From: a virus
Lineage: Duplodnaviria > Heunggongvirae > Uroviricota > Caudoviricetes
Length of the DNA stretch: 19,781 nucleotides
IMG/VR virus record: IMGVR_UViG_2548876854_000015
Location: 1 to 19,781 of that record
Reading direction: 5' to 3' (one strand)
Positions 2,108 to 19,781 of the stretch are shown here, in pieces; position 1 is the first letter of the stretch; every line of letters starts with the position of its first letter. The notes beneath the pieces were generated by a model. It saw only the letters and a program-made list of their open reading frames with translations. It searched no databases and was not told the origin of the DNA. Both the position numbers and the translations under genes were made by a program.

Positions 2108-2340
2108 ATTGGTTCTTCAGGGGAGCGATATCACCGTTCAAAGAAGAGTTCCCCCTCAGAACCGTTTTCGATGATACGATTTAATATTCCAATCGCAACA
2201 ACAGCTTGCGTCAAGTTATGTAAATTTATTTATATGTTTTTATTTTATGTAAATAATTCACTTTCACTTAAAATATATACAACAACATATAAATAAATTT
2301 ATTTTGAAGGCGATGATTAAATGTCGTTTCTGATATCACA

Positions 2341-2375
2341 CCACAGAAACAACAAAACCCGCTCGATGGCGGGTT
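2341..2375 (-). terminator. Intrinsic terminator-like hairpin about 85 nt downstream of the Q-like gene
   Basis: 7-bp stem AACCCGC/GCGGGTT with loop tcgatg, followed on the minus strand by TTTTGTTGTTT. Confidence 0.45.
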
Positions 2376-2460
2376 CTATTAAAGTTTAATTGCGCTTGAT
2401 TCGCCTCGCGATACAGCTTTGCGAAGCGTAGCAAAATTGAAGCAGTTTATGCGTAAAAAA

Positions 2461-3889: not shown

Positions 3890-4162
3890 TTCTCAATCTC
3901 TCGATGGCGCAGCGCAGCAGATGCCAGTTGTTCAGGCTGACGTATGAAGTATAAATAAACTGGCTCCAGTGTAAAGCCCCCACCTTAATGGAATAAAAAC
4001 CAAACAACAGATTGCTGGGATACAAACAACGCTTATTATTAAAAGCGGTTAAACAAATTAAATTTTAATGTTATGCAAATTTGTCAGATCACCATAATAT
4101 CTCATTTGAAAACCGCTGAAATAACAACCCTATCAGGGTTAATCATATTAAGGTGAGTAAAT

Positions 4163-4249
4163 ATGGAAAACAACAAATCTGCACATTACGTTCCTTTTTT
4201 ATCTGTAATACTTTTTGTTTTATGCTGTGCGTGGGCATTATTTTTATAA
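4163..4249 (+). CDS. Candidate 28-aa hydrophobic small protein (MENNKSAHYVPFLSVILFVLCCAWALFL)
   Basis: ATG with SD AGGTGAG 7 nt upstream; single predicted TM helix. Sits in the otherwise non-coding gap between hok and the DUF1367-like gene. No homolog recognised. Confidence 0.2.
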   Translation: MENNKSAHYVPFLSVILFVLCCAWALFL

Positions 4250-4357
4250 AAATATTCACAGATAAAATATACCCGCCAAAGCTGGTTAAGTGCGGGTGCG
4301 TTGAGGATGCCTGACACATCAGAGGTGGCGGGAGATTACTCTCCCGCCTGGTCACTC

Positions 4358-4513
4358 TTACTCTCTAGATTCGTAGTCTACGAAGACAGCGACCTCCGTC
4401 TGGCCGGTTCGGATTCGCACCTCGCAGAGGTCTTTCCTCGTTACCAGTGCCGTCACTATGACGGTTAAACAGATGACGATCAGGGCGATTAACATCGCCT
4501 TTTGCTGCTTCAT
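4358..4513 (-). CDS. hok: Hok/Gef-family type I toxin (51 aa)
   Basis: MKQQKAMLIALIVICLTVIVTALVTRKDLCEVRIRTGQTEVAVF... matches the Hok family almost residue for residue from memory. The GC-rich hairpin GGCGGGAG/CTCCCGCC at 4327-4348, just 3' of the stop, is consistent with a hok mRNA 3' stem. Confidence 0.9.
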   Translation of the reverse strand: MKQQKAMLIALIVICLTVIVTALVTRKDLCEVRIRTGQTEVAVFVDYESRE

Positions 4514-4940
4514 AGCCTGCTTCTCCTTGCCTTTCGGCACGTAAGAGGCTAACCTACATGTGTTCAGCATGGATTGAGCCTCAGATTAATGTTAAGCGTC
4601 CTGCAAGACGCGTAATGTTAACTGGGGCTTTTCTCTATCTGCCTTTTGGTGTTCATGCCTGAGACAGATAGCCTCAAGCACCCGCAGCGATTTTTACTTA
4701 ACTCTTCTTTTCACGCAAACCGTTTTTATCCTCAACGTAAATTTTACCAATATCGCCTAACACATCTCCCCTGCCCTGACGATGCTTACCTCTTTACACA
4801 GCCCCCTATTTATGTATTATCTTTTACAAACAACCAGTTAAGAGCTATCGGTGGGTGGGTTCGCCCTGCGGTAGCTTTTCCTTTATACATTGCATCTATT
4901 TATGTTCTAGTATATTCCTATATGTTCAAAAGGACTTTTC

Positions 4941-5873
4941 ATGCACAGCGTTAATTTCTATTCATTCCGCGTATTGACCCATAAAGGCAGTCGAGCCAGC
5001 AAAAAGCTTAATGAATTGGGTTTAAGTAATAAAAAAACGGCATATGAACTTTTTGTTGATTATTTTACTCTATATAAAAACACCCCCATCGAGTTTGGCG
5101 TATCCAAAACTAAAATATCTCTAGAACAACACGCTAAACTTCACTTTGATAACACAAAGAAAATTATATATGGTTATATAAAAGTTGGGAAATATGGAGA
5201 AAGTAGTGAAATAAAGGATGTAAAACTCAAAAAAATCCACTACAGGACAACTGCTTATGATGTAACACTCAAAGAACGTTATATTTTAATATACCTACCA
5301 GACACCCTTGAAGAAGGAATTATTGCATTCCATTCTTGCGATAATATTTCTGCTCGAGGTGTCCTTTCTGATTCTATCACTGAATATCTAAAAAACAAAT
5401 TTCAACTCGAAGCAAGAATCAATCCATTACATCATAAGAAAATCCCTCAATATATTCTCAATTCCGAATTAAAACAAATTAAGGCTCAAGGATATAAAGC
5501 ACCAAAAGACATTACTGATTCCTTTGGTCAAAACAAAACAAACATCAAGACAGACTTAATAATAAAAGCAAACGATGGCATGTTCGGAAGTTTCAGGGAT
5601 TTAAGAAACAAGAATATAGGAAACATCATTGAGATTATTGAAGATAAATGTGATGCAATAAAAGTAAGCTTACAGCTCGGCAGTCGGACTGTCGTTTTCA
5701 ATTATGATACCATACTAAAAAAAGGAATTTCCGCAGAGTTAGATGATAATGATCTAAAAATCGACCCATTAACAGGCATACCTGATCTAACAGCACTTCA
5801 TGACACGATAAAAAACCTTTCTAATGATATATTGTTAGAACTGCATAGCGGAAACAAAGGGGTGATCATATGA
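4941..5873 (+). CDS. Unknown 310-aa soluble Lys/Asn-rich protein; first gene of the AT-rich cassette
   Basis: Long ORF with SD AAGGA 6 nt before the ATG. About 30% G+C by hand count (19/60 in one line) against about 53% in a flanking phage line (32/60). No catalytic motif recognised. Confidence 0.7.
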   Translation: MHSVNFYSFRVLTHKGSRASKKLNELGLSNKKTAYELFVDYFTLYKNTPIEFGVSKTKISLEQHAKLHFDNTKKIIYGYIKVGKYGESSEIKDVKLKKIHYRTTAYDVTLKERYILIYLPDTLEEGIIAFHSCDNISARGVLSDSITEYLKNKFQLEARINPLHHKKIPQYILNSELKQIKAQGYKAPKDITDSFGQNKTNIKTDLIIKANDGMFGSFRDLRNKNIGNIIEIIEDKCDAIKVSLQLGSRTVVFNYDTILKKGISAELDDNDLKIDPLTGIPDLTALHDTIKNLSNDILLELHSGNKGVII

Positions 5874-6424
5874 ATAAAATAAATGTGCTGGGTGTAATAA
5901 TAAAACACTACAAAACAATGTCAGATCAGCGTGGAACAATGTTGATGAGCGACATTATCGTACATTTTATTGTTCCGCTATCTCTTTCTTTCGTTCTGTG
6001 CTGGACATACGGAATAATGAAACCGGCAATTGCTTCCGTCTTCGTTAACTTCGGGGCTATTACAACAGCACTATTAATGAGTGCAGTAATAATGATTTAT
6101 GAACAAAAACAAAAAACCATTACTAAGATATCAGACATAATTGAAGGACACAAATCCCGAGACAAATTGATATCATTAAACACTAACAAAACCATATATG
6201 AGCAGTTATGCCACAACGTCGCTTATGCAATATTAACTTCAATAGTATTGGTTATATTTTCAGTGATAATATATTTCCTGCCTGACAATGCAGTGGATTT
6301 AATGAAATGGTATTTTCGCGCACCTGCATATATTGTTAGCTTTTTAGCCTATACATCCTTTTTTATCACTGTTATAACGTTCTTAATGGTAATCAAAAGG
6401 TTTAGCACAATTTTAGATAATTGA
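5870..6424 (+). CDS. Unknown 184-aa integral membrane protein (4 predicted TM helices); second gene of the cassette
   Basis: ATG overlaps the upstream stop (ATGA at 5870-5873) with SD GGGGTG. Hydrophobic segments IIVHFIVPLSLSFVLCWTYGI, AIASVFVNFGAITTALLMSAVIMIY, VAYAILTSIVLVIFSVIIYFL, YIVSFLAYTSFFITVITFLMVI. 18/60 G+C in one line. Confidence 0.7.
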   Translation: MNKINVLGVIIKHYKTMSDQRGTMLMSDIIVHFIVPLSLSFVLCWTYGIMKPAIASVFVNFGAITTALLMSAVIMIYEQKQKTITKISDIIEGHKSRDKLISLNTNKTIYEQLCHNVAYAILTSIVLVIFSVIIYFLPDNAVDLMKWYFRAPAYIVSFLAYTSFFITVITFLMVIKRFSTILDN

Positions 6425-7539: not shown

Positions 7540-8301
7540 TCACTTTTCCAACACAACGCGACTGGTGGAATCGACAATCTGTCGGACAATATCCCGGTGT
7601 TTATTCAGCTCCCGCAGTGCGGCGCAGACACGCTCCCACTTCTGGACATGATTTTTCGCCCGGCGCAGTTCGCGGTTTGCCAGATGCAGCGATGGTAAAA
7701 TCAGGTCATCCGCCCGCGTTTCGGTGAACGATGGCAGCGACTGCACAATGTCCGCCACAGTTCCTGTTTTAATTTCTTCCTGTATTGCAGCTTCCTGTGC
7801 TGGTAACGCAACACCTGCTGGCTGAGGAAAGGCTTTACCATCAGTTTCCGTTACCAATGCAGCTTTCGGCTCTGCTGGTAAATTATCGTCCGGCATGCAG
7901 TAACGAAATTTACCGTTCTGATTTACGCGAATCAGGCGACCTTTGCTGATTGCCTGAGCCAACGTTGAAGCCACTTTGCGTGATGTGATACCGAACAGCG
8001 TAGCCAGCTCATCAGCCGTTTGTGGTCCGCGTTGTTCAATCGTCGCGGTTAAATCGCACTCTGAGATTTTCGCTACTGTTGCCGTGGTGGTTTCTTCCGG
8101 CAGTTCTGCCTGCTCTGGCTGTTCCTGCTGAACGTTGTTATCAGCCACACGCCAGGTGTATACGCTTTTATCAACGAAGCCAGCCTTTTTAAGTTCCCAC
8201 AGCTCGTTCAGCACTTCTTCACGACTGATATCAAGTCGCGCAGCCAGTTCTACCGACGTGGCTTTTCCCATTGCTTTCAGTACATCAAAAACGGTTTCCA
8301 T
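7540..8301 (-). CDS. ydaW: YdaW-like (DUF1627) protein, apparently full length
   Basis: [45 protein letters not shown]... N-terminus as in Rac ydaW from memory; SD GGGAGGAAA. K-12 ydaW is a truncated pseudogene. Confidence 0.65.
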
Positions 8302-8323
8302 TAAAATTTCCTCCCGGTAAAAA

Positions 8324-9070
8324 TCACTTCGCAATTCCTGGCTGGACGACATTCGGACGCCAGCTCTCCCAGTTAAAATTCACCCATCGCCCGCCGTTCA
8401 TGGTCATGCGATCCATAATCCGCTCGCCGAGCAATGTTTTCATGGCCTCATAGTTCAGGTTTGTCAGCATCCCCACGCTGCGCATCGACGCTGTCCGGCG
8501 ATCAACAATCTGGTGCAGCACCACCTGCTCGTTTTTTGTCTCGCGCTGAATGCCAATTTCATCAAGAACCAGCAGATCCACTTGGCACAGTTCCCGCAAA
8601 AATTTTTCGCCTGATTGCCCGTCGTCATAGCTGGCGTGTAGAGCACTCATGACATCAGCCACGGTAACCACAATCACTGTCTGGCCATCTTTCAGCAGGC
8701 GATTCCCGATAGCCGCCGCCAGATGGTTTTTTCCGGTACCAGGTTTTCCGCTGAACGCAAAATTTGTACACCCGGTCATCAGTTCATCAGCGATAGATTT
8801 CGCCTGGTTCAACGCGTATCGCTGACCGTCGTTCTGCACCTGGTAATTCGCAAACGAGCATTTGCGGTGCAATGGCTGGATGCCAGAGCGATTCAGAATT
8901 TTTTCCACCCGCAACTGACGATTCTGACGGTTGATCTCCTCACAACGTTTCTGGCCTTCGGAAAGTTGCCACTCGCGCCACTCCGCTACCGTTTTGAATG
9001 GGGCGGTTACATGTGGCGGGGCCAGTCTGCGGATACGTTCAAGAATGCCTCCTGCCGCAATATTTTTCAT
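8324..9070 (-). CDS. ydaV: DnaC-like replication/helicase-loader ATPase (YdaV)
   Basis: 248-aa ORF with Walker [12 protein letters not shown] and Walker B LLVLDEIG, directly downstream of ydaU. Length matches K-12 YdaV. Confidence 0.85.
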
Positions 9071-9076
9071 GGTCAG

Positions 9077-9934
9077 TTACCCCCTGAAGCCTGGCGGGAT
9101 CGCACTATCCGGTAACGAGACGGTGTTAACCTGTCGGAGTAACGTCTCAGGTCGAACACCTTTTGGCGCGAACAAGCCCTGGTATTCATTGGCGATGCTG
9201 TGTCGAATCACCTGCTCAGGTGAAAAACCCTGCTGGCGGAATTTTTCCAGCTCCCGTATCGCCCCGTTAGCGCCCTGCTCCGTTCGAATCGGTTTACGCA
9301 ATGCCTGGCGAAATTCAACCCACTCACGCCAGAGCGAGACAGAAATCCAGTTCGGCAAAGCAATATCCAGAGGGTCAAACTTTTTGACACCTCGATTCCC
9401 CCGGGGGGGATTTAGGGGGGGATCTGTTTTTAGATCTTTATCTGTATCTTTATTAGTTGCCTTTGTGTTGACATCATGTTCAAACACCACTTCAACATCT
9501 GTTTGAACACCTGTTAAATTTCTCTCTTGTTTTGTTTGAACATCTGCTTCCTTTCTGCTTCTTCTGGCCTGAACCGATGCTTTTCCTGCGGCTGATTTTT
9601 TGGTTAATTTTTCCCTGACTGATGCCAGATCTTCCTCAATCCGAAGATGCACCCATTCCTCGCCGTTATCGCAAAAAAACTCCCGCAAGGACGGTTCAAC
9701 ATCAGCCCATCGCTCGTTAGTCAGACGGGCAATTTTTGCCAGCCTGTTTTTAGGTATTGGCTTTCCTGTTTGCCAGTAATTGAACATCAGCAACAAATAC
9801 GCACCATGCTCCTCTGCTGACAAATGCATGGTGTCAGCCAGGTAATCAGCTATGTACAGTTGCATGTATGGTAATGCGGCCATAATTGCCCCGTATGATG
9901 CTGCCCGATTGCTTAGAATAAGCACAAACAGCAT
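9077..9934 (-). CDS. ydaU: Replication initiator, O-like (YdaU, DUF1376)
   Basis: 285-aa ORF containing MAALPYMQLYIADYLADTMHLSAEEHGAYLLL, matching K-12 YdaU length. An alternative start at ATG 9883 is possible. Low-complexity linker in the middle. Confidence 0.8.
   Translation of the reverse strand: MLFVLILSNRAASYGAIMAALPYMQLYIADYLADTMHLSAEEHGAYLLLMFNYWQTGKPIPKNRLAKIARLTNERWADVEPSLREFFCDNGEEWVHLRIEEDLASVREKLTKKSAAGKASVQARRSRKEADVQTKQERNLTGVQTDVEVVFEHDVNTKATNKDTDKDLKTDPPLNPPRGNRGVKKFDPLDIALPNWISVSLWREWVEFRQALRKPIRTEQGANGAIRELEKFRQQGFSPEQVIRHSIANEYQGLFAPKGVRPETLLRQVNTVSLPDSAIPPGFRG
9370..9545. repeat. Ori-like iterons and palindromes inside the ydaU linker region
   Basis: Three copies of a 10-bp palindromic core (TGTTCAAACA at 9477-9486; TGTTTGAACA at 9500-9509 and 9533-9542), plus GTCAAActtTTTGAC, CCCCCGGGGGGG and GATCTgtttttAGATC nearby. 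Confidence 0.45.
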
Positions 9935-9946
9935 GGAAACTTTTGC

Positions 9947-10369
9947 TTAATGAACAATGACAGAATCGTCGGAAGACCCGCCGCCGCTGAAATGCGCTTT
10001 CCGGTAAACGGCCTGGACTGCATCATCATGCGCATCAATTGCCGTACTTAACGCTTCCTGCGCCGCCAGTAATGCACGGCGTTCCAGGGTATCGAAGATG
10101 CAGAGTCGGTGACGCAGCTCGCGAGGAAGAATTGCCAGAACCGCAGGGATCAATTTCTGAATTTTTTCCCTTTGCGCATTCGTTTCACCTTTCAACCAAC
10201 GGTGATAGATATTCTGCTGATTGTTCCAGTCCTTGCCTGGAACCAGGGGCAATTCGCCGCCCCCCTGGCGCAGATATTCTTCAGTAATGGCATTGGCTAC
10301 CCATGCCTGCCCTTTTTCGGCTGCTAGGGCAAACAACACTGATTCGATGTGCTCATGCTTGATTTTCAT
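9947..10369 (-). CDS. ydaT: YdaT (cII-position early protein, toxic on derepression in Rac)
   Basis: 140-aa MKIKHEHIESVLFALAAEKGQAWVANAIT..., matches K-12 YdaT in length and sequence from memory. Confidence 0.85.
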   Translation of the reverse strand: MKIKHEHIESVLFALAAEKGQAWVANAITEEYLRQGGGELPLVPGKDWNNQQNIYHRWLKGETNAQREKIQKLIPAVLAILPRELRHRLCIFDTLERRALLAAQEALSTAIDAHDDAVQAVYRKAHFSGGGSSDDSVIVH

Positions 10370-10391
10370 GAATCATTTGCCTCTTGATGTT

Positions 10392-10688
10392 TCAGGTATG
10401 ATCAAATGAGGATTTGTTACTGTCATTTAGTTGCTTCACTGACATATTCTGCGAACAACATGCCGAACGTCGTAAATATGACCAGTCAATATCAGGACGA
10501 AGTTCTTCGCACAGAACCTCACCTCTTGTTGCACGTTCAATTGCTGGACATCTCTCGGCAGGCAATTGACGTACCCCTTTGATCCATTGATTTACGCTTG
10601 GAGGTGATACACCTAAAAGCCTAGCCATTGCTGATTGCCCACCGACAACAGCACAAGCTTGCTTGAATGAATAGTTCTCTTTTTTCAT
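10392..10688 (-). CDS. ydaS: YdaS (Cro-like HTH regulator)
   Basis: 98-aa MKKENYSFKQACAVVGGQSAMARLLGVSPPSVNQWIKG..., HTH; transcribed divergently from racR. Confidence 0.85.
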   Translation of the reverse strand: MKKENYSFKQACAVVGGQSAMARLLGVSPPSVNQWIKGVRQLPAERCPAIERATRGEVLCEELRPDIDWSYLRRSACCSQNMSVKQLNDSNKSSFDHT

Positions 10689-10715
10689 CGAATGAACTCC
10701 AAAAACACACAGAAA

Positions 10716-10792
10716 TATTAGGCGACGCCTAATATAAATGTCAATAGGCTATGCCTAATGCAATGAGGGTAGGGATTGCCTAATGCAATGAG
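10716..10792. promoter_or_regulatory. racR/ydaS divergent operator region
   Basis: Perfect palindrome TATTAGGCG-a-CGCCTAATA (10716-10734), TAGGC-tat-GCCTA (10745-10757), and a 16/17 direct repeat ATGCCTAATGCAATGAG / TTGCCTAATGCAATGAG (10751-10767 and 10776-10792). Shared half-site TTAGGC. Confidence 0.6.
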
Positions 10793-10811
10793 CATAGGAG
10801 AATATTAAGCA

Positions 10812-11288
10812 ATGCTTAGTGGTAAAGACTTAGGCCGAGCGATAGAGCAGGCCATTAACAAAAAAATCGCATCGGGATCCGTCAAATCAAAGGCGGAGGT
10901 CGCACGCCACTTCAAAGTCCAACCACCATCAATTTATGACTGGATTAAGAAAGGCTCCATAAGTAAAGATAAACTTCCAGAATTATGGCGTTTCTTTTCT
11001 GATGTTGTTGGTCCAGAGCATTGGGGGCTTAACGAATACCCCATACCAACCCCCACCAATTCAGATACAAAAAGTGAACTTTTAGATATAAACAACCTTT
11101 ATCAAGCAGCCTCTGATGAAATAAGAGCGATTGTAGCTTTCCTGTTATCTGGAAATGCTACAGAACCAGATTGGGTTGACCACGATGTTCGCGCCTACAT
11201 AGCAGCGATGGAAATGAAAGTGGGTAAGTATCTGAAAGCTCTAGAATCTGAACGGAAAAGCCAGAACATCACAAAAACTGGAACTTAA
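10812..11288 (+). CDS. racR: RacR prophage repressor (CI-like)
   Basis: 158-aa MLSGKDLGRAIEQAINKKIASGSVKSKAEVARHFKVQPPSIYDWIKKG..., N-terminal HTH; matches K-12 RacR length. Confidence 0.9.
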   Translation: MLSGKDLGRAIEQAINKKIASGSVKSKAEVARHFKVQPPSIYDWIKKGSISKDKLPELWRFFSDVVGPEHWGLNEYPIPTPTNSDTKSELLDINNLYQAASDEIRAIVAFLLSGNATEPDWVDHDVRAYIAAMEMKVGKYLKALESERKSQNITKTGT

Positions 11289-11360
11289 ACTTATATGGTC
11301 TGACGGAAAACTCCTGGATTCCGTTATTTAACCCCCCATCACTTTCTCCTGTCGTCATCA

Positions 11361-11425
11361 CCTATTAGGTTACGCTCAAAACATTAGGCATAGCCTATTG
11401 ACAATCAATTAGGCATTACCTATAG
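11361..11425. promoter_or_regulatory. Second operator-like cluster, inverted copy of the racR/ydaS operator, upstream of ydaG-ydaF
   Basis: ATTAGGCATAGCCTATTGACA (11383-11403) is the exact reverse complement of 10739-10759; further TTAGGC/TTAGGT half-sites at 11364-11370 and 11409-11414. Confidence 0.5.
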
Positions 11426-11595
11426 TTCCAGCATACCACCCACCCCGCCCCACAGAACGCCTGGCAATACTTCGAGTTACCAGGCCGTGGTAAGGGGTTA
11501 AGTAGCCAGCCCGAGGCGTATGAACATGACGGCGGGATTCAAATTTTGCAGTGCAGCAGTTAGTTCCGCCACCCGGCGTTAAGGGGAGAGATAAG

Positions 11596-11730
11596 ATGGT
11601 GCATTACGAAGTAGTTCAGTATTTGATGGATTGTTGCGGCATCACTTACAACCAGGCTGTGCAGGCTTTACGCAGCAACGACTGGGATCTCTGGCAGGCA
11701 GAAGCCTCTATCCGCAACAACAAGATGTGA
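11596..11730 (+). CDS. ydaG: YdaG small protein (44 aa)
   Basis: MVHYEVVQYLMDCCGITYNQAVQALRSNDWDLWQAEASIRNNKM, SD GGGGAGAG; below the 60-aa cut-off of the ORF track, translated by hand. Confidence 0.7.
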   Translation: MVHYEVVQYLMDCCGITYNQAVQALRSNDWDLWQAEASIRNNKM

Positions 11731-11740
11731 GGTGCGAAAA

Positions 11741-11896
11741 ATGCAAAAAATCGACCTCGGCAATAACGAATCCATGGTGTGCGGCGTGTTCCCCAACCAA
11801 GATGGAACGTTCACTGCTATGACGTATACCAAAAGCAAAACATTTAAAACCGAAACTGGTGCGCGCCGATGGTTGGAGAAGCACACAGTAAGCTAA
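11741..11896 (+). CDS. ydaF: YdaF small protein (51 aa)
   Basis: MQKIDLGNNESMVCGVFPNQDGTFTAMTYTKSKTFKTETGARRWLEKHTVS, translated by hand; 3' end overlaps the sieB stop convergently. Confidence 0.7.
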   Translation: MQKIDLGNNESMVCGVFPNQDGTFTAMTYTKSKTFKTETGARRWLEKHTVS

Positions 11897-12381
11897 CGAT
11901 TAAAACGTCTACTCCTGCTGTTCCAGAATAACTTCATAAAATGGGAGTATTTTTCGGTGACGAGATAATAAGAACAGTTTGCGCTATCACTCTGATGTTG
12001 AATGATGCCCTTCCGTTCTAATTTTTTCATAACCGGGTTACGGCAAGGAGAAGTGATAATAAGATTTCCGGTTTTAAGGAAATCTTTAAATACAGCTATT
12101 TCTTTCTCAGATAAACGAAGCAATACTCGTTGCTCTGGTAGTAATGAATAATGCTTTTGAATATGTGCTCGCAATCTTGAGAAGGAAATGGCGACCACGA
12201 AAGAAAAGGCAAAAACGATAATCTGAAAGAGCCAAGGTATTTCAGTATAAGCATTGAATGCGACAGTAAACTCTTTCGGTATCAGCCAGAGAGTGAGGCC
12301 AAAAATGATAATCGTATACATAAGTCTTTCGAGTGGCTCGTTAGCAAAAAGTTTCAACAATGGAGTAAATACATCCAACAT
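11893..12381 (-). CDS. sieB: SieB superinfection-exclusion membrane protein
   Basis: 162 aa from MLDVFTPLLKLFANEPLERLMYTIIIFGLTLWLIPKEF... with TM segments. The 203-aa upstream extension is rejected. Confidence 0.85.
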   Translation of the reverse strand: MLDVFTPLLKLFANEPLERLMYTIIIFGLTLWLIPKEFTVAFNAYTEIPWLFQIIVFAFSFVVAISFSRLRAHIQKHYSLLPEQRVLLRLSEKEIAVFKDFLKTGNLIITSPCRNPVMKKLERKGIIQHQSDSANCSYYLVTEKYSHFMKLFWNSRSRRFNR

Positions 12382-12599
12382 ATCAATAACTCTCAACTGT
12401 AAGGGTATTGAAATGTTAACACAAGCTCTCGCTGTAGGGGTATAGCCGAGACCACCGAAGCCCGGAGGTGGTGAAATAAAACTGGGCGCAACACGAAGGC
12501 GCATTTCCGATATCCATAAAGAGTCGGTCTTGTCTGTTAAATTTAAATGGTGGGAGTGCGCCTCCGGTTGTAAATAACGACATTGCTGTGTGTAGTCTT

Positions 12600-12646
12600 G
12601 GCGGCATCAGTTTTTTCTTGAAGTTCGGCTGATGTCCGCCCTTTTT
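12600..12646 (+). other. Long-loop hairpin GGCGGCATCAG...CTGATG(T)CCGCC followed by CTTTTT, upstream of kilR
   Basis: 11-bp stem with one bulge and an 18-nt loop, then a T5 run. Could attenuate read-through from the immunity region into the kil operon. Confidence 0.3.
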
Positions 12647-12811
12647 AAAGTGAATTTTGTGATGCGGTGAATGCGGCTAAGCGCACGCGGAACAGTTAAA
12701 AGCATCAGTGTTATGGGGGGATTATCCGGCGTTAATTGTTAACTGGTTAACGTCACCTGGAGGCACCAGGCACCGCATCAACAAAGTTCATTTGTGAAAA
12801 TGGAGATAATT

Positions 12812-13033
12812 ATGATTGCTCATCACTTCGGAACTGATGAAATACCTCGTCAGTGTGTGACTCCTGGTGATTATGTTCTTCATAACGGCCGGACATATAT
12901 TGCCTCGGCAAACAATATTAAAAAGCGAAAACTTTATATTCGAAACCTGACCACAAAAACATGCATTACTGACTGCATGATTAAAGTCTTCCTCGGTCGT
13001 GATGGTTTACCTGTAAAGGCGGAGTCATGGTGA
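12812..13033 (+). CDS. kilR: KilR (FtsZ/cell-division inhibitor)
   Basis: 73-aa [46 protein letters not shown]..., SD GGAG 7 nt upstream. Confidence 0.85.
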
Positions 13034-13203
13034 TGACTAAGAAAATAAAATGTGCTTACCACCTTTGCGATAAAGAAGTTAAAGAAAGCAAAAGCATTAA
13101 AAGACCACTTCATTTCATGCGTGGAGTTATCCCAACGACGGAAATGAAAAAATATTGTAGTGAAATATGTGCCGAAAAAGACCAGATGGCACACGAACTT
13201 TAA
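13033..13203 (+). CDS. ydaE: YdaE small Cys-rich zinc-binding protein (56 aa)
   Basis: [56 protein letters not shown], translated by hand; start overlaps the kilR stop. Alternative in-frame ATG at 13027. Confidence 0.7.
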   Translation: MTKKIKCAYHLCDKEVKESKSIKRPLHFMRGVIPTTEMKKYCSEICAEKDQMAHEL

Positions 13204-13277
13204 TTAACTGACTATGCGAAACTGAATTTATGCCAGCAATGGCAGGGATTCGCTCAACCTTAATTAAGGAGAAAAAC

Positions 13278-13553
13278 ATGATTACCAGTTATGAAGCCAC
13301 TGTTGTAACTACTGATGACATTGTTCACGAAGTTAATCTGGAAGGAAAGCGTATTGGCTACGTGATTAAAACAGAAAATAAAGAAACCCCATTCACTGTG
13401 GTTGATATCGACGGTCCATCAGGCAACGTTAAAACACTTCACGAAGGTGTCAAAAAAATGTGCCTGGTGCATACCGGAAAGAATCTGCCCGCAGAAAAAA
13501 AAGCCGAATTTCTGGCAACTCTAATTGCAATGAAATTAAAAGGTGAAATCTGA
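13278..13553 (+). CDS. racC: RacC
   Basis: 91 aa from MITSYEATVVTTDDIVHEVNLEGKRIGYVIKTENKETPF..., SD AAGGAG. Confidence 0.85.
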   Translation: MITSYEATVVTTDDIVHEVNLEGKRIGYVIKTENKETPFTVVDIDGPSGNVKTLHEGVKKMCLVHTGKNLPAEKKAEFLATLIAMKLKGEI

Positions 13554-13558
13554 AAGAA

Positions 13559-13583
13559 ATAGCCTGCGTATGACGCAGGCTAT
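13559..13583. other. Perfect 11-bp inverted repeat with 3-nt loop between racC and recE
   Basis: atagcctgcgt-atg-acgcaggctat, 6 nt after the racC stop. No U-tract on the plus side; a TTCTTTC-type run follows on the minus side. Confidence 0.4.
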
Positions 13584-13654
13584 GAACAGTGTGTATCCGG
13601 CAAGATCATTCACTGAACAAAACGAATTTTAATCTGAGTTGAGGTTAAAAAACA

Positions 13655-16600
13655 ATGAGCACAAAACCACTCTTCCTGTTACGGAAAGCGAAAAAATCAT
13701 CCGGTGAACCTGACGTCGTCCTGTGGGCAAGCGACGATTTTGAATCGACCTGTGCCACTCTGGACTACCTGATCGTTAAGTCAGGTAAAAAACTGAGCAG
13801 CTATTTTAAAGCTGTTGCCACGAATTTTCCTGTCGTTAATGACCTGCCCGCTGAAGGTGAGATCGATTTTACCTGGAGTGAACGCTATCAACTCAGCAAA
13901 GACTCCATGACATGGGAACTAAAACCGGGAGCAGCACCAGACAACGCTCACTATCAAGGCAATACCAACGTCAACGGCGAAGACATGACTGAGATTGAGG
14001 AGAATATGCTACTCCCAATTTCTGGCCAGGAACTGCCCATTCGTTGGCTTGCTCAACACGGCAGCGAAAAACCGGTAACGCACGTTTCACGCGACGGACT
14101 CCAGGCATTACACATTGCTCGGGCTGAAGAACTACCGGCTGTTACTGCCCTGGCTGTTTCCCACAAAACCAGCCTGCTCGACCCGCTGGAAATTCGCGAT
14201 CTCCACAAACTGGTTCGTGACACTGACAAAGTTTTCCCTAATCCTGGTAATTCAAACCTGGGACTGATAACTGCTTTTTTCGAAGCATACCTGAACGCTG
14301 ACTACACCGATCGAGGACTGCTGACAAAAGAGTGGATGAAGGGTAATCGTGTTTCACACATCACTCGCACGGCTTCCGGTGCTAATGCTGGCGGCGGAAA
14401 CCTCACCGATCGCGGCGAAGGTTTCGTACACGATCTGACGTCACTGGCGCGCGACGTAGCCACTGGCGTACTGGCCCGTTCAATGGATCTGGACATCTAT
14501 AACCTTCATCCGGCACACGCTAAACGCATTGAGGAAATTATCGCTGAAAATAAACCGCCCTTTTCTGTTTTCCGCGACAAATTCATCACCATGCCTGGCG
14601 GGCTGGATTATTCCCGCGCCATCGTGGTTGCGTCCGTAAAAGAAGCACCAATTGGGATCGAGGTCATCCCCGCGCACGTCACTGAATATCTGAACAAAGT
14701 ACTGACTGAAACCGATCATGCCAACCCTGATCCGGAAATCGTGGATATTGCCTGCGGTCGCTCCTCTGCCCCGATGCCGCAGCGAGTAACAGAAGAAGGA
14801 AAACAGGATGATGAAGAAAAACCGCAACCATCTGGAACAACGGCAGTTGAACAGGGAGAGGCTGAAACAATGGAACCGGAGGCAACTGAACATCATCAGG
14901 ACACGCAGCCGCTGGATGCTCAGTCACAGGTAAATTCTGTTGATGCGAAATATCAGGAACTGCGGGCAGAACTCCATGAAGCCCGGAAAAACATTCCATC
15001 AAAAAATCCTGTCGATGCCGATAAATTGCTTGCTGCATCACGTGGTGAATTTGTTGACGGAATTAGCGACCCGAACGATCCGAAATGGGTTAAGGGGATC
15101 CAGACTCGCGATTCTGTGTACCAGAACCAGCCAGAAACGGAAAAAACCAGCCCGGATGTGAAACAACCTGAGGCAGTAGTGCAACAGGAACCGGAAATAG
15201 TCTGCAATGCCTGCGGTCAGACTGGCGGAGATAACTGCCCTGACTGTGGGGCGGTGACGGGCGACGCAACATACCAGGAAACATTCGATGAAGAGAATCA
15301 GGTTGAAGCTAAGGAAAAAGATCCGGTGGAAATGGAAGGCGCTGAACATCCGCACAATGAGAATGCTGGCAGCGATCCGCATCGTGATTGCAGTGATGAA
15401 ACTGGTGAAGCGTCAGCTCCTGTAGCAACTGAAATCATGTGGCCGTCATATTTCGAGCCTGGCCGCTATGAAAACCTCCCGAACGAGGTTTATCACTCCG
15501 CCAACGGAATAAGCAGCACGATGCTGAAGGATGCCCGTATCAGCCTGATGTATTACCACGGACGGCACATTGCCGGAACTATTCCGAACGAGGAAAGTGA
15601 TGCACTGCTGCGTGGGCGGATCATTCACAGCTATGTTCTGGAAACGGATAAATTCGCTGATGAATATGCCATTCCGGTACCGGTTCCTGAATATGTGGTT
15701 ACTACTTCTAGCGAACTGATCGCCATCATTAAAAAACACAATGCCAGTCTGCCAGCACTGATGACACCAGAGCAGATGAAAGAGTGGATCGAAAGCTACA
15801 ACAGCACTCTTATACAGCCACTGTCTGTAAGTGCCGGGGCCGAAGAAACAGGCATCCTTTACGGTTCGCTTCCGGTGGAATTTCGGCGTATTCCTGAGGG
15901 GGAAAAACACACAGCATCAGCAATGAAAGCCTGTATTAAAGAATACAACGCAAGCCTCCCTCCTCTGTTGAAAACCAGTGGAGCACGGGAGCAGCTTCTG
16001 GATCAAATTGAAACTGTAGCCCCAGAACTGGCAAAAAAAGAACGTGCTAAATCTTTGCCTTACAACATCAGTGGCACAAAAGAGCAATTAACCGAAATCG
16101 CACGGAAAATTCGCCCGGAACTGGTGACACTGGAGGACTGGCAAAAACGCCAGCAAGAAGAAAATGCCGGGAAAACGTTTATCAGTCCGGAGATGTATGA
16201 ACAGGCAAAAAATATTCACGCGGCACTGCAAAACAATACCGATGCAGCAAGGCTACTCAACCACCCGGATCGCAAATCTGAAATCAGCTATTTCGGGTTT
16301 GATGAAGAAACCGGGCTGGAAATCAGGGTCCGTCCTGATATCGAAATCCGGCTGCCATACGAAAGCATTTGCGCTGACGTGAAGTCAGTCAGCCTCGGTT
16401 ATGTGCGACAGGAACGACTTAAAGATCGCCTGCACCGTGAAATTATTGAGCGTGATTATCACCTCAGCGCCGCAATGTATTGCGATGTGGCAAACCTGGA
16501 CAAATTTTTCTGGATCTTCGTCAACAAAGATGCTGGCTATCACTGGGTGGCAGTCGTGGAAGCCTCGCAGGAACTCCTGGAACTTGGTCGACAGGAATAT

Positions 16601-16726
16601 CGCCGGACGCTACGCCAGATAAACGAAGCCCTGGAGACAAACAACTGGCCAGCACCGATTACCGAAAGTTATACCGACGAATTAAACGACTTTGATCTTC
16701 GTCGTCTTGAAGCACTGAGCATCTGA
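13655..16726 (+). CDS. recE: RecE-family exonuclease VIII, 1023 aa, with divergent expanded C-terminal nuclease region
   Basis: The first roughly 590 aa are near-identical to K-12 RecE as I recall it. The C-terminal part is only distantly alignable to the RecE nuclease core (RVRPDIEIR...ICADVKSVS against RCRPDKIIPE...IMDVKTTAD) and carries an extra segment of about 150 aa with an internal repeat ([10 protein letters not shown] / [11 protein letters not shown]). Confidence 0.85.
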
Positions 16727-16737
16727 GGAAGGACACA

Positions 16738-17790
16738 ATGAACGAATTAACTCAACAAGAAAATATTAACTCTAATGTTGCGGTTTTCAGCCCTCAGTCC
16801 CTGGCTGCAATTCAGACATTTTCCCAGGTAATGGCTTCCGGCATGGCTACTGTACCGGAACACCTCCGGGGAAATCCATCAGACTGCATGGCCATCACCA
16901 TGCAGGCGATGCAGTGGCAAATGAACCCTTACGCAGTAGCTCAGAAAACTTTCGTTGTGAATGGTGTGCTCGGATATGAAGCGCAACTGGTTAATGCCGT
17001 AATCAGTACTCGTGGGCCGCTAACCGGGCGTATTGAATATGACTGGTTCGGGCCGTGGGAAAAAATTATCGGGAAATTTGAAATCAGGAAGAGCGACAAA
17101 GGGAAAGAATATCGTGTACCTGGCTGGAAGCTGGCCGATGAAAACGGGATCGGTGTTCGTGTCCAGGCAACACTACGCGGCGAAAGTAAACCACGCGTAC
17201 TGGAATTACTTCTGGCGCAGGCCAGAACACGTAACTCAACGCTATGGGCCGACGATCCTCGCCAGCAGCTTGCCTATCTAGCGCTGAAACGCTGGGCGCG
17301 CCTTTATTGCCCCGAAGTGATTCTTGGAGTGTACACCAGGGACGAACTGGACGAGCCACAGGAAAAAATCATTAATCCGGTTCAGGAACATAAAAACACT
17401 TCCGCTTGCCGCGCGGAACGTGAAACAACAATTATTGAGCAGGATGCCGGGGAAAACTGGATCGATGCTTTCCGTGAACGTATTGAGCAGGCACAAAGCA
17501 CCGGGGAAACAACAGCACTTCGCCAGGAAGTGGAAGATCATAAAAATACACTTGGCGCTCTCTATACGGAACTTAAAGGAAAAGTGGTTCAGCGTCATCA
17601 CCGTCTCAATGCTATTGCCCGTATCGAGAAGATGATAAATGACCTACCTTCTTCAGGTGATCCAGAAGCAGAACAAAAATTTACTGCTCTGGAAAATACG
17701 CTGAATGCTGCCCGGCCACATCTGGGTGAATTATATGAGGCGTATAAAACGACACTGACAGATATGAAACCAGAATATATCGGCTCCTGA
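16738..17790 (+). CDS. Putative single-strand annealing protein in the RecT position; family not recognised
   Basis: 350-aa ORF immediately after the recE-like gene with SD GAGGAAGGA. Sequence does not match K-12 RecT (269 aa) as I recall it; function inferred from position only. Confidence 0.45.
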   Translation: MNELTQQENINSNVAVFSPQSLAAIQTFSQVMASGMATVPEHLRGNPSDCMAITMQAMQWQMNPYAVAQKTFVVNGVLGYEAQLVNAVISTRGPLTGRIEYDWFGPWEKIIGKFEIRKSDKGKEYRVPGWKLADENGIGVRVQATLRGESKPRVLELLLAQARTRNSTLWADDPRQQLAYLALKRWARLYCPEVILGVYTRDELDEPQEKIINPVQEHKNTSACRAERETTIIEQDAGENWIDAFRERIEQAQSTGETTALRQEVEDHKNTLGALYTELKGKVVQRHHRLNAIARIEKMINDLPSSGDPEAEQKFTALENTLNAARPHLGELYEAYKTTLTDMKPEYIGS

Positions 17791-17800
17791 TATTGACTTT

Positions 17801-17838
17801 GGCGGTGTAGCCTCACCGCCATCACAAAATTTTATTTT
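17801..17838 (+). terminator. Possible terminator: hairpin GGCGGTG-tagcct-CACCGCC then A/T-rich tract
   Basis: 7-bp stem 11 nt after the stop of the annealing-protein gene; the T-run (ttttatttt) begins 9 nt after the stem, so this is weak. Confidence 0.35.
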
Positions 17839-17853
17839 ATGAGAGAAAAGACA

Positions 17854-18048
17854 ATGCGGTATGAAAAAGTCAAACCATGCCCTTTTTGTGGTTGTCCATC
17901 AGTAACGGTGAAAGCCATTTCAGGATATTACCGCGCGAAGTGTAACGGATGCGAATCCCGAACCGGCTATGGTGGAAGTGAAAAAGAAGCACTCGAACGA
18001 TGGAATAAACGAACCACTGGAAATAATAATGGAGGTGTTCATGTATAA
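17854..18048 (+). CDS. ralR: RalR/Lar (restriction alleviation protein; type I toxin of the ralR/ralA pair in Rac)
   Basis: 64-aa MRYEKVKPCPFCGCPSVTVKAISGYYRAKCNGCESRTGYGG..., four-Cys zinc ribbon. The ralA antisense partner was not located. Confidence 0.85.
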   Translation: MRYEKVKPCPFCGCPSVTVKAISGYYRAKCNGCESRTGYGGSEKEALERWNKRTTGNNNGGVHV

Positions 18049-18229
18049 AATTACCGCCACTATTGAAAAGGAAGGTGGCACTCCTACTAACTGGACAAGG
18101 TACTCAAAAACAAAATTAACCAAATCAGAATGCGAAAAAATGCTCTCAGGTAAAAAAGAAGCAGGCGTTTCCAGAGAGCAGAAAGTAAAACTGATAAATT
18201 TTAATTGCGAGCAACTTCAGTCCTCGTGA
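18029..18229 (+). CDS. ydaC: YdaC (DUF1187) small protein
   Basis: MEVFMYKITATIEKEGGTPTNWTRYSKTKLTKSECEKMLSGKK...; start overlaps the ralR 3' end, SD GGAGGT. An alternative start at 18041 (MYKIT) is possible. Confidence 0.65.
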   Translation: MEVFMYKITATIEKEGGTPTNWTRYSKTKLTKSECEKMLSGKKEAGVSREQKVKLINFNCEQLQSS

Positions 18230-18328
18230 ATTGCATTGTATTCAAATTAAAACTTCATAGCTGATTATTAATAATCAACATCGGGCGTCAATTTCAGTCT
18301 AACATTGGCGCCTGCCAGAGGTGATGCG

Positions 18329-18544
18329 ATGGCACAAGTAATCTTTAATGAAGAGTGGATGGTTGAATACGGCCTGATGCTTCGCACTGGTCTGGGGGCC
18401 AGACAAATTGAAGCATACCGCCAGAACTGTTGGGTGGAAGGCTTCCACTTCAAACGAGTATCTCCTTTAGGGAAGCCAGACAGTAAGCGAGGGATTATCT
18501 GGTACAACTATCCAAAGATAAATCAGTTTATCAAAGACTCATGA
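18329..18544 (+). CDS. xisR: Excisionase (XisR/YdaQ-like)
   Basis: 71 aa from [43 protein letters not shown]..., SD GAGGTG; ends 1 nt before int. Confidence 0.8.
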
Positions 18545-18545
18545 T

Positions 18546-19781
18546 ATGTCTAAATTACCAACAGGTGTCGAGATTCGAGGTAAATACATTCGCATCTGGT
18601 TCATGTTTCGAGGAAAACGATGTCGGGAAACATTGAAAGGCTGGGAGGTTACTAACAGTAACATTAAAAAAGCCGGGAATTTAAGAGCGTTGATAGTTCA
18701 TGAAATCAATTCCGGTGAATTTGAGTATTTAAGACGTTTCCCCCAGTCCAGCACTGGGGCAAAAATGGTGACAACGAGGGTCATAAAAACGTTCGGGGAG
18801 CTTTGTGATATCTGGACAAAAATTAAAGAGACAGAGTTAACAACAAACACAATGAAGAAAACGAAATCACAATTAAAAACACTCAGGATAATAATTTGTG
18901 AGAGTACCCCAATATCACATATTCGTTATAGCGATATCTTAAACTACCGGAATGAACTGCTGCATGGAGAAACGCTTTACCTGGATAATCCAAGATCCAA
19001 CAAAAAAGGAAGAACCGTGCGCACAGTTGATAACTATATCGCCCTGCTCTGTTCGTTGTTACGTTTTGCGTATCAGTCGGGATTTATATCAACCAAACCA
19101 TTTGAAGGAGTAAAAAAATTACAGCGAAACAGAATAAAGCCTGATCCGTTATCTAAAACAGAATTCAATGCATTAATGGAAAGTGAAAAAGGACAGAGCC
19201 AGAACTTGTGGAAATTTGCCGTTTACTCCGGGCTTCGTCACGGGGAACTGGCTGCTCTGGCGTGGGAGGATGTGGATTTCGAGAAGGGAATTGTGAATGT
19301 CAGAAGAAACCTGACGATACTTGATATGTTCGGTCCCCCAAAAACAAATGCGGGGATTCGGACGGTAACACTACTGCGGCCTGCTATTGAAGCACTGAAG
19401 GAGCAATACAAACTAACCGGGCATCATCGCAAAAGCGAAATCACTTTTTATCATCGGGAGTACGGCAGAACCGAAAAGCAAAAACTGCATTTTGTTTTCA
19501 TGCCCAGGGTGTGTAACGGAAAACAGAAACCTTATTACTCGGTAAGCAGTCTGGGGGCGAGATGGAATGCAGCAGTAAAACGTGCTGGTATTCGCCGCCG
19601 TAATCCGTACCATACGCGGCATACTTTTGCCTGCTGGTTGTTGACGGCAGGAGCGAACCCGGCATTTATAGCCAGCCAGATGGGGCATGAAACTGCGCAG
19701 ATGGTGTATGAAATTTACGGTATGTGGATTGATGACATGAACGACGAACAGGTAGCTATGTTGAATGCGCGGTTATCATAG
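18546..19781 (+). CDS. intR: Tyrosine integrase (IntR-like)
   Basis: 411-aa ORF with the C-terminal catalytic region (...RHGELAALAWEDVDF...HTRHTFACWLL...) typical of lambda-family integrases. Stop codon TAG is at the window end. Confidence 0.92.
   Translation: MSKLPTGVEIRGKYIRIWFMFRGKRCRETLKGWEVTNSNIKKAGNLRALIVHEINSGEFEYLRRFPQSSTGAKMVTTRVIKTFGELCDIWTKIKETELTTNTMKKTKSQLKTLRIIICESTPISHIRYSDILNYRNELLHGETLYLDNPRSNKKGRTVRTVDNYIALLCSLLRFAYQSGFISTKPFEGVKKLQRNRIKPDPLSKTEFNALMESEKGQSQNLWKFAVYSGLRHGELAALAWEDVDFEKGIVNVRRNLTILDMFGPPKTNAGIRTVTLLRPAIEALKEQYKLTGHHRKSEITFYHREYGRTEKQKLHFVFMPRVCNGKQKPYYSVSSLGARWNAAVKRAGIRRRNPYHTRHTFACWLLTAGANPAFIASQMGHETAQMVYEIYGMWIDDMNDEQVAMLNARLS

Follow-up and report, generated by a model that had tools for sequence, protein, structure and literature searches.

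Organization of the recET locus

The window, the whole 19,781-nt stretch of DNA that was analysed, is a Rac-type lambdoid prophage at ttcA, and it is 100% identical to E. coli MEI003. It shares with the Rac prophage of E. coli K-12 the prophage type, the ttcA site, and the gene order kilR-ydaE-racC-recE-recT-ralR-xis-int. The recombination genes are encoded on the plus strand (Table 1) and are separated by an 11-nt gap, whereas recE and recT of K-12 overlap by 8 nt. The first gene encodes exodeoxyribonuclease VIII, which matches the NCBIfam equivalog NF007259 with 1525.7 bits (cutoff 1269) over residues 1–1022 and carries the N-terminal Exonuc_VIII domain PF06630 (E 7.4e-98, residues 2–178). 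The RefSeq labels are recE for WP_024229934 and RecT family recombinase for WP_001004422. A promoter and terminator scan of positions 13000–18600 found no more sites than were present in shuffled sequence.

Table 1. Positions of recET features in the window
Feature	Position	Strand	Evidence or remark
Chimeric recE (exodeoxyribonuclease VIII), 1023 aa	13655..16726	+	ORF, NCBIfam, Pfam, RefSeq WP_024229934
K-12-like recE N-terminal part, aa 1–590	13655..15424	+	98.6% nt identity to K-12
Left crossover interval	15405..15424	+	recE codons ~585–590, just 5' of the first conserved nuclease-domain motif
Replaced cassette, 2375 bp (K-12 counterpart 1640 bp)	15425..17799	+	Without K-12 blastn match
Gifsy-type RecE nuclease domain, aa 596–1023, PD-(D/E)XK fold	15440..16726	+	Alignment, phmmer, Foldseek
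Catalytic codon H658	15626..15628	+	
Catalytic codon D895	16337..16339	+	
Catalytic codon D908	16376..16378	+	
Catalytic codon K910	16382..16384	+	
Helical insert in nuclease domain, aa ~665–874	15647..16276	+	At the position of K-12 RecE loops 665–698
Internal repeat copy 1, aa 677–714	15683..15796	+	Smith-Waterman, motif count
Internal repeat copy 2, aa 746–787	15890..16015	+	Smith-Waterman, motif count
Putative Shine-Dalgarno-like sequence GAGGAAGGAC	16725..16734	+	Overlaps the recE stop; ends 3 nt 5' of the next ATG
RecT-family annealase, Gifsy/'enterohemolysin' subfamily, 350 aa	16738..17790	+	Pfam, PHROG, RefSeq WP_001004422
Annealase core, aa ~11–195	16768..17322	+	
Predicted disordered linker, aa ~196–237	17323..17448	+	AlphaFold2 pLDDT 29–48
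Helical C-terminal domain, aa ~238–350	17449..17787	+	pLDDT ~80–91; without counterpart in K-12 RecT
Right junction, then hairpin	17791..17820	+	K-12 homology back at 17800, 9 nt past the annealase stop

Boundaries of the replaced cassette

The original prediction that roughly the first 590 residues of RecE are those of K-12 is accurate: the first 1770 nt of the gene contain 25 nucleotide differences from K-12, and 16 of the 590 residues differ (97% identity). This part includes most of an acidic low-complexity linker (residues ~361–595; 22.5% D+E, 8% P). In a recent review, no function is assigned to the N-terminal region of RecE (PMC11611040).

Homology to K-12 Rac detected by blastn extends over positions 7852–15424 (96.9% identity) and 17800–19781 (96.0%), and the segment in between has no blastn match in the K-12 Rac region. 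At the left junction, identity to K-12 is unbroken to position ~15410 and collapses past 15424, and the final three amino acid differences before the junction are at residues 586–588. A mosaic junction inside recE had been predicted, and both blastn and alignment to K-12 place a sharp break at codon ~590, which could be narrowed at the nucleotide level to the crossover interval in Table 1. The right junction is followed by a hairpin, GGCGGTG...CACCGCC (17801–17820), which is conserved in K-12. The two junctions bound a single block, in which the nuclease domain and the annealase have been replaced together relative to K-12.

Both nuclease domains and both annealases share Pfam families, and the cassette could thus be imagined to have diverged in place by fast evolution, with no recombination. 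However, within ~20 nt the nucleotide identity falls from 98.6% to below detection, and it is back at 96% at a second sharp point. Furthermore, the cassette is 97% identical to cassettes that follow very dissimilar recE N-terminal regions (68% nucleotide identity in strain PEC240), and relatives show many other breakpoints. The sharp boundaries on both sides contradict gradual decay, and divergence in place was rejected as having a negligible probability.

Nuclease domain of RecE

Beyond codon ~590, the alignment of RecE with K-12 RecE is limited to two loose segments with ~25–29% identity. This is the loose alignment of the original prediction; high K-12 identity throughout the C-terminal region, named there as the result that would contradict a swap, is absent. 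The nuclease domain is instead 52% identical to that of Gifsy-1 RecE and ~55% identical to that of Gifsy-2 RecE. It matches PF12684 (E 1.8e-13, residues 836–1000) and the K-12 RecE structure (PDB: 3H4R; phmmer E 1.8e-7), which is also the first-ranking Foldseek hit of the predicted model (E 4e-5, probability 1.00). The model has low confidence in its first ~80 residues (RecE residues 566–646). Residues H658, D895, D908, and K910 align with H652, D748, D759, and K761 of K-12 RecE, and the domain therefore retains the PD-(D/E)XK fold with the catalytic His, Asp, and Asp-x-Lys expected of a RecE protein.

The distance from the conserved histidine to the next conserved strand is 217 residues, compared with 76 in K-12, and the domain therefore contains 141 extra residues, close to the ~150 anticipated. 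They belong to an insert that is helical in the AlphaFold2 model, with pLDDT values of ~77–96 per 10-residue block, mostly 88–94. The K-12 loops in this position have been proposed to capture DNA (PMC11611040). A Pfam search with the 206-residue insert alone identified no family. The internal repeat predicted within the extra segment is present: its two copies align with a Smith-Waterman score of 63, whereas 500 shuffled sequences gave 26.5 ± 4.7 and none scored as high. RecE of the window, of Gifsy-2, and of HK225 each contains three copies of the motif I-x-x-[HY]-N-[AS]-[ST]-L, and K-12 RecE contains none. A kinship of the repeats with SAP/HeH-like DNA-binding motifs was considered as a guess and is not claimed here. 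The same insert, with three N-[AV]-[ST]-L-P motifs, is found in Salmonella Gifsy-1 and Gifsy-2, as well as in coliphages HK225 and mEp237, with nuclease identities of 52–55%.

Structure and classification of the annealase

The protein encoded downstream of recE is longer than K-12 RecT (350 versus 269 residues) and has no similarity to it in BLASTP (E 0.36), as the original prediction stated. Its label as a non-RecT protein, however, is wrong at the family level. The protein matches the Pfam RecT family PF03837 with 147.5 bits (cutoff 24; E 4.6e-43) over positions 2–190 of the 198-position profile. It also matches phrog_561 (E 1.3e-145), a RecT-like annealing protein family, and is 49% identical to Gifsy-2 RecT across 97% of its length. 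It falls outside the K-12 RecT orthologue group defined by NF007351, TIGR00616, and phrog_148: a search of NCBIfam at E ≤ 0.01 gave no hit to TIGR00616 or NF007351, nor was there a hit to the lambda Bet model TIGR01913. The protein is thus a RecT-family member of a subfamily other than that of K-12 RecT, and not the high-identity RecT orthologue that had been foreseen as a contrary outcome.

Membership in another annealase superfamily (ERF, Sak, Rad52-like, or gp2.5-like) would be compatible with the missing BLASTP and NCBIfam matches. Moreover, an alignment of 43 sequences of the subfamily did not match K-12 RecT in hhalign (probability 0.3%) and found neither RecT nor Redbeta structures among PDB sequences, and phmmer of the 350-residue protein against the PDB returned only noise. 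The classification is therefore based on the Pfam model; however, the alignment is shallow (Neff 2.15), and the profile nulls are no argument against membership in the RecT family. The Pfam match covers nearly the whole profile, no further annealase family was found in the Pfam search, and the top structural match is Redbeta. A non-RecT annealase was consequently rejected on the strength of the Pfam match, and another superfamily is extremely improbable.

Homologues with 58–70% identity carry the source name 'enterohemolysin', and the name suggests a place in the EHAP1-like branch. PMC8093625 cites this family (Iyer et al. 2002) as a distinct E. coli and Salmonella subgroup of RecT/Redbeta proteins. 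The annealase has the same arrangement of core, linker, and C-terminal domain as its Gifsy counterparts. The linker and the ~110-residue helical domain are additional to K-12 RecT, and the C-terminal domain resembles generic three-helix bundles.

C-terminal domain of the annealase and nuclease type

The C-terminal domain of the annealase is associated with the type of the nuclease, an observation that goes beyond the original prediction. Among 80 viral loci with a Gifsy-type nuclease, 78 encode a downstream protein with this domain. The cores at the 80 loci are of three kinds: phrog_561-type in 75 (73 among the 78 domain carriers), phrog_148 in four, and phrog_3657 in one. The domain is missing from all annealases at 80 loci with a K-12-type nuclease; this set is nearly clonal (99–100% identical nucleases), and the absence is therefore weak evidence. 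In Aeromonas phage pAEv1818, a nuclease that aligns without gaps at 50% identity is paired with an annealase that combines a K-12-RecT-like core (E 1e-27) with the Gifsy-type C-terminal domain (E 2e-13). The domain has only 51 matches among 1.84 billion representative proteins, and it is located at the C-terminal end of the matching proteins, apart from a few weak or multi-stretch matches. As in Gifsy-type pairs, the insert-bearing nuclease in the window is followed by an annealase whose C-terminal domain ends in MKPEY.

The occurrence of the domain with the Gifsy-type nuclease in 78 of 80 loci and on three cores makes it a probable partner-docking module, and we propose that it docks on the nuclease. 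The agreement between domain type and nuclease type fits a cognate pair. The unit that has to travel together may be even smaller, comprising the Gifsy-type nuclease domain and the ~110-residue annealase domain as a portable docking adaptor, with interchangeable cores; we put this forward tentatively, as possible rather than probable. The three cores with this domain, phrog_561, the K-12-RecT-like phrog_148, and the uncharacterised phrog_3657, are unrelated or barely related. The adaptor would possibly bind the 141-residue helical repeat insert, likewise unique to the Gifsy-type nuclease. If so, grafting the domain onto any annealase would re-target it to a Gifsy-type nuclease. Alternatively, by analogy with Redbeta, the C-terminal domain could bind the host SSB.

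Individual alleles have also been exchanged within the Gifsy type. In 11 of 38 close viral loci, a match to the window of at least 94% nucleotide identity across the nuclease domain stops at ~16720–16729, at the boundary of recE and recT, and in E. coli 042 this nuclease domain (98.2% nucleotide identity) is accompanied by a different recT core. Within the type, recT alleles thus move separately from the nuclease domain, which makes the unit less rigid than a fixed pair. The predicted swap to a different cognate pair holds insofar as the block was replaced and the C-terminal domain tracks the nuclease, but alleles are not strictly co-inherited, and the replacement may have run in either direction.

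Distribution of the cassette and direction of the exchange

Of 5426 complete E. coli genomes, 193 (~3.6%) contain the cassette and 1751 the K-12-type cassette. The complete 52-kb genome of phage Rac-SA53 also carries, and annotates, a Gifsy-type recET cassette. Together with the RefSeq annotations, this means that the Gifsy-type RecET pair described here is not new.

K-12 Rac is a cryptic prophage with a silent recET, and the cassette in the window might likewise be a decaying, non-functional remnant, to which the low-confidence stretch of the RecE model could be added. Against this, both ORFs are intact, the catalytic residues are kept, and the cassette is 96–100% conserved across 159 complete genomes, besides its presence in the complete phage. 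Relative to PEC240, dN/dS is 0.13 in the nuclease domain and 0.07 in recT (range 0.07–0.14), and the cassette is under purifying selection. A pseudogene reading was rejected on the basis of the intact ORFs, catalytic residues, and low dN/dS, and decay is very unlikely.

The exchange could have occurred in the opposite direction, with the Gifsy-type cassette being original in Rac-like phages and the K-12 allele having acquired the short nuclease domain and phrog_148 RecT. In full-length RecE of Gifsy-2 and HK225, as well as in many viral contigs, a RecE-like N-terminal region is joined to a Gifsy-type nuclease; the complete phage Rac-SA53 has the Gifsy-type cassette, and K-12 Rac is a defective remnant. 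The K-12 cassette is, on the other hand, nine times commoner in the complete E. coli genomes, although frequency gives no polarity. We estimate that the chance of such a reverse swap falls a little short of even.

Model of the chimeric RecET pair

We conclude that the recET genes of this Rac-type prophage are very probably a natural chimera, in which a Gifsy-type nuclease and annealase unit is joined to a Rac/K-12 recE N-terminal region and works as RecET. Recombination at two points, one where the acidic linker gives way to the nuclease domain and one just past the annealase stop, has left residues 1–590 of Rac/K-12-type RecE linked to another version of the nuclease and annealase unit. The first component of this unit is a putative PD-(D/E)XK 5'-3' exonuclease with its 141-residue helical repeat insert, and the second a predicted single-strand annealing protein of the Gifsy/'enterohemolysin' type, composed of the core, disordered linker, and helical domain. 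The nuclease would resect double-stranded DNA ends in the 5'-3' direction, and the annealase, bound to it through the C-terminal domain, would be loaded onto the 3' overhang and pair it with complementary DNA.

The chimera combines features of known systems. It shares with K-12 Rac the recE N-terminal part, the nuclease fold and catalytic residues, and the Pfam family of the annealase, but differs from it in the sequence and insert of the nuclease domain and in the PHROG family and architecture of the annealase. The Gifsy prophages of Salmonella have the same gene order, and their recET is reported to function in vivo upon derepression, with mutational activation suppressing recombination defects (PMC3121763; PMC8496262). 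In contrast to Gifsy-2, recE in the window has the Rac/K-12 allele of the N-terminal region, which shares ~41% identity with the Gifsy-2 region, and the Gifsy prophages have another host, integration site, and immunity region. The lambda Red system of lambda exonuclease and Redbeta (PDB: 6M9K, 7UJL) is likewise a two-component exonuclease and annealase module, although its nuclease belongs to another family and forms a different oligomer. In Redbeta, too, a flexible linker connects the N-terminal annealing domain to a small helical C-terminal domain, which binds the nuclease and SSB. The annealase in the window may dock similarly; its C-terminal domain is about twice as long as that of Redbeta, with no detected sequence similarity.

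The recET swap is in itself ordinary, a case of routine mosaicism among phages that affects a well-known recombination module. Its modest value is that of a natural experiment on the specificity of exonuclease and annealase partners, in which two very different nuclease and annealase units have been joined to one recE N-terminal region. How RecT recognizes RecE was described as still unknown in a 2023 review (PMC11611040), and a 2026 paper offers only a beginning of the classification of RecT C-terminal architectures (PMC13490951). The C-terminal domain, tracking the nuclease type over different annealase cores, is a concrete candidate for the docking module, and its linkage to the nuclease may serve as a rule in designing portable recombineering pairs.

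Junctions of the recET cassette with K-12

The window is a lambdoid prophage of the Rac type that sits adjacent to ttcA. Its recE-recT interval (13655-17790) is 100% identical to that of E. coli MEI003 (NZ_CP071263), in which RefSeq annotates racC on one side of the two open reading frames and ralR-xisR-intR on the other. Upstream of the annealase gene lies GAGGAAGGAC, overlapping the stop codon of recE. Elsewhere in the prophage, adjoining plus-strand open reading frames at 4941-5873 and 5870-6424 (310 and 184 aa) lie on the strand opposite to their neighbours and have a GC content of 0.31-0.37, compared with about 0.5 for the prophage. Both are hypothetical in RefSeq and gave no match in Pfam or PADLOC; perhaps they represent a moron or a defence pair.

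Comparison of the window with the K-12 Rac region by blastn produced two long matches, 7852-15424 (96.9% identity) and 17800-19781 (96.0%), and no match between 15424 and 17800. The two boundaries therefore delimit a cassette at 15425-17799 that is 2375 bp long, versus 1640 bp in K-12. The first 1770 nt of recE differ from K-12 at 25 nucleotides, which agrees with the original prediction that roughly the first 590 residues are K-12-like: 16 of the 590 differ, the last three being residues 586-588. The breakpoint, for which alignment to K-12 recE-recT had been proposed, could be placed on both sides. On the left, K-12 identity is continuous to approximately 15410 and is gone beyond 15424; on the right, homology returns at 17800, 9 nt past the annealase stop codon, at a point marked by a hairpin common to both prophages. 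The cassette is "replaced" in the sense of this comparison between the window and K-12, and the data give no direction of the swap.

The K-12 junction is one among many breakpoints in related viral contigs. Where closely related contigs match the window at high identity across the nuclease domain, the matches begin at approximately 13960, 14300, or 15160, which are recurrent breakpoints in the recE N-terminal region. Their right-hand ends lie at about 16720-16729, the recE/recT boundary, in 11 of the 38 loci with such a match, and otherwise far downstream. The E. coli 042 locus has the same nuclease domain (98.2% nucleotide identity) and a differing recT core, and shares only the C-terminal end of the annealase. 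The breakpoints at the gene boundary and the arrangement in E. coli 042 therefore indicate that exchange occurs at the level of the type of pair and not of a fixed combination of alleles. Core residues ~90-175 of the E. coli 042 recT (window 17004-17263) are of a different allele, a sub-mosaic within recT. Separately, Rac-like viral contigs contain nuclease domains at least 96% identical attached to recE N-terminal regions that are just 50-83% identical.

Features of the recET module and of the prophage
Feature	Position	Strand	Details
recE, exodeoxyribonuclease VIII	13655-16726	+	1023 aa; RefSeq WP_024229934 in MEI003
Exonuc_VIII domain	RecE residues 2-178		Pfam
PD-(D/E)XK DUF3799 domain	RecE residues 836-1000		Pfam
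RecT family recombinase (annealase)	16738-17790	+	350 aa; RefSeq WP_001004422 in MEI003
Annealase core	residues ~11-195		AlphaFold2 model
Annealase disordered linker	residues 195-238		AlphaFold2 model
Annealase helical C-terminal domain	residues 238-350		AlphaFold2, pLDDT ~80-91
tRNA-Gly(tcc) and tRNA-Thr(tgt)	1954-2028 and 2032-2107	-	between lysis and late-regulation genes of the prophage

RecE nuclease domain and its helical insert

Past the junction, RecE aligns with K-12 RecE in just two loose segments of ~25-29% identity, the loose alignment that had been expected. The complete product scores above the NCBIfam exodeoxyribonuclease VIII equivalog cutoff (1525.7 bits vs 1269). Residues H658, D895, D908, and K910 align with K-12 H652, D748, D759, and K761, the last three of which are catalytic residues of K-12 RecE. 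His-652 of K-12 RecE is a named active-site residue (review PMC11611040). By sequence, the nuclease region is similar to the RecE crystal structure 3H4R (E 1.8e-7), and an AlphaFold2 model of residues 566-1023, with a mean pLDDT of 70.7, has 3H4R as its best Foldseek match (E 4e-5, probability 1.00), followed by the PD-(D/E)XK exonucleases Cas4, MGME1, lambda exonuclease, and RecB.

The conserved histidine is separated from the next conserved strand by 217 residues in the window RecE and by 76 in K-12, and the former therefore contains 141 extra residues, close to the predicted segment of about 150 aa with an internal repeat. The repeat is real: residues 677-714 and 746-787 align with a score of 63, versus 26.5 +/- 4.7 across 500 shuffles, with no shuffle scoring as high. 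Three copies of the motif I-x-x-[HY]-N-[AS]-[ST]-L are present in each of the RecE proteins of the window, Gifsy-2, and HK225, and none in K-12 RecE. The insert (model residues ~100-300, corresponding to RecE residues ~665-865) is modelled confidently as all-helical, with a pLDDT of ~77-96 per 10-residue block, mostly 88-94, and has no Pfam family match. At this site K-12 RecE instead has long disordered loops, 665-698, which were proposed to capture the dsDNA end (review PMC11611040).

The nuclease domain, taken over its full length with the insert, shares 52% identity with proteins named Gifsy-1 prophage RecE; with Gifsy-2 RecE, which is also full-length and has an N-terminal region 41% identical to that of the window RecE, the identity is ~55%. 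Gifsy-2 RecT and the annealases of coliphages HK225 and mEp237 are 49% identical to the window annealase over 97% of its length. The cassette is therefore a Gifsy-type RecET. Mutational activation of the Gifsy-1 and Gifsy-2 recET orthologues can suppress recombination defects, according to statements in PMC3121763 and PMC8496262 that cite Lemire et al. 2008.

The annealase is a divergent RecT family protein

The partner of RecE is, as predicted, longer than K-12 RecT (by 81 residues) and dissimilar to it, with no similarity detected by BLASTP (E 0.36). It matches the Pfam RecT family (PF03837) with an E-value of 4.6e-43 over profile positions 2-190 of 198, and its description as a "non-RecT" protein is the sole descriptive element of the prediction to fail. 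The proposed swap of a cognate exonuclease/annealase unit stands in substance. The protein also matches PHROG 561, "RecT-like ssDNA annealing protein" (E 1.3e-145); K-12 RecT matches PF03837 too (E 9.7e-56), but belongs to PHROG 148. The narrower NCBIfam models (RecT equivalog, RecT subfamily, and Bet) gave no match to the 350-aa protein, and a shallow subfamily profile of the annealase found neither K-12 RecT nor any solved structure. Homologues with 58-70% identity carry the source name "enterohemolysin", which suggests the EHAP1-like branch of the RecT/Redbeta superfamily; PMC8093625, citing Iyer et al. 2002, describes that branch as a subgroup from E. coli and Salmonella. The AlphaFold2 model of the annealase has a mean pLDDT of 72.2 and consists of three parts.

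Association between the annealase C-terminal domain and the nuclease type

Aeromonas phage pAEv1818 encodes a nuclease domain that aligns without gaps to that of the window at 50% identity. Its adjoining annealase resembles the 350-aa protein solely in the C-terminal domain (34% identity over residues 232-345, E 2e-13), and has a K-12-RecT-like core (31% identity, E 1e-27). We classified the next gene in 80 viral loci with a Gifsy-type nuclease of 51-100% identity. The C-terminal domain is present in 78 of the 80 downstream proteins; one exception is truncated by the contig end, and the other ends in a divergent tail. Of the cores, 75 are of the phrog_561 type, four are of the K-12-RecT/phrog_148 type, and one is phrog_3657, which is labelled "unknown function" and has no Pfam match. 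None of the annealases in 80 loci with a K-12-type nuclease has the domain, which is weak evidence because that set is nearly clonal. Searching 1.84 billion representative proteins gave only 51 matches to the domain. Apart from a few that are weak or made up of several stretches, these lie at the C-terminal end, and a RecT Pfam match lies upstream of the domain in all ten long representatives scanned (full-length in six, partial in the four longest).

The simplest reading of this co-occurrence is that the C-terminal domain docks the annealase on the Gifsy-type nuclease, in the way that the C-terminal domain of Redbeta binds lambda exonuclease (6M9K; review PMC11611040). Host SSB may be its binding target instead or additionally. 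As to docking on the nuclease, the same review states that it is not known whether RecT uses such a C-terminal domain, and a 2026 paper takes first steps towards sorting RecT C-termini by architecture and modelling how RecT contacts RecE (PMC13490951).

The phrog_3657 core belongs to a 414-aa protein encoded after a Gifsy-type recE in viral contig IMGVR_UViG_3300011855_000048 (L066:5332-6576). Its first ~280 residues are phrog_3657 and matched nothing in Pfam or among PDB sequences; the tail corresponds to the annealase C-terminal domain at 44% identity. Homologues of phrog_3657 are named "hypothetical protein" in 96 phage records, including Mycobacterium, Gordonia, Acinetobacter, and Clostridium phages, and in Clostridium phage phiCT19406C (L169:2923-3744) the phrog_3657 gene and the beginning of a gene for a RecE-type nuclease (DUF3799) overlap. 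This looks like an unannotated annealase family. Three representative proteins of 546-756 aa (P0254, P0255, and P0259) carry RecE-type domains (Exonuc_VIII or DUF3799) together with a partial RecT core and the C-terminal domain; they could be genuine fusions of RecE and RecT or artefacts of frameshifts.

Distribution and selection

Of 5426 complete E. coli genomes, 193 contain the cassette, in every case on the chromosome, and 159 of these have at least 80% of its length; 1751 contain the K-12 cassette. E. coli 042 also holds it, as does the 52-kb phage Rac-SA53, where it is annotated as recE and recT. The dN/dS values relative to strain PEC240, in which the recE N-terminal region has just 68% nucleotide identity to that of the window, are 0.13 (nuclease domain) and 0.07 (annealase). 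The recET module is intact, and purifying selection is acting on it. The record PP818812.1, "Actinobacillus phage vB_Apl-pPE4", contains this E. coli Rac recET at 793-4979 (96.6% nucleotide identity, annealase 100% identical), and its assignment to the host Actinobacillus pleuropneumoniae looks doubtful.

The module belongs to the known Gifsy-type RecET group, here inside a Rac prophage, and is already annotated; it occurs in about one in 30 complete E. coli genomes. A useful by-product of the analysis is that the annealase C-terminal domain is tied to the nuclease type, which makes it a testable candidate docking module.
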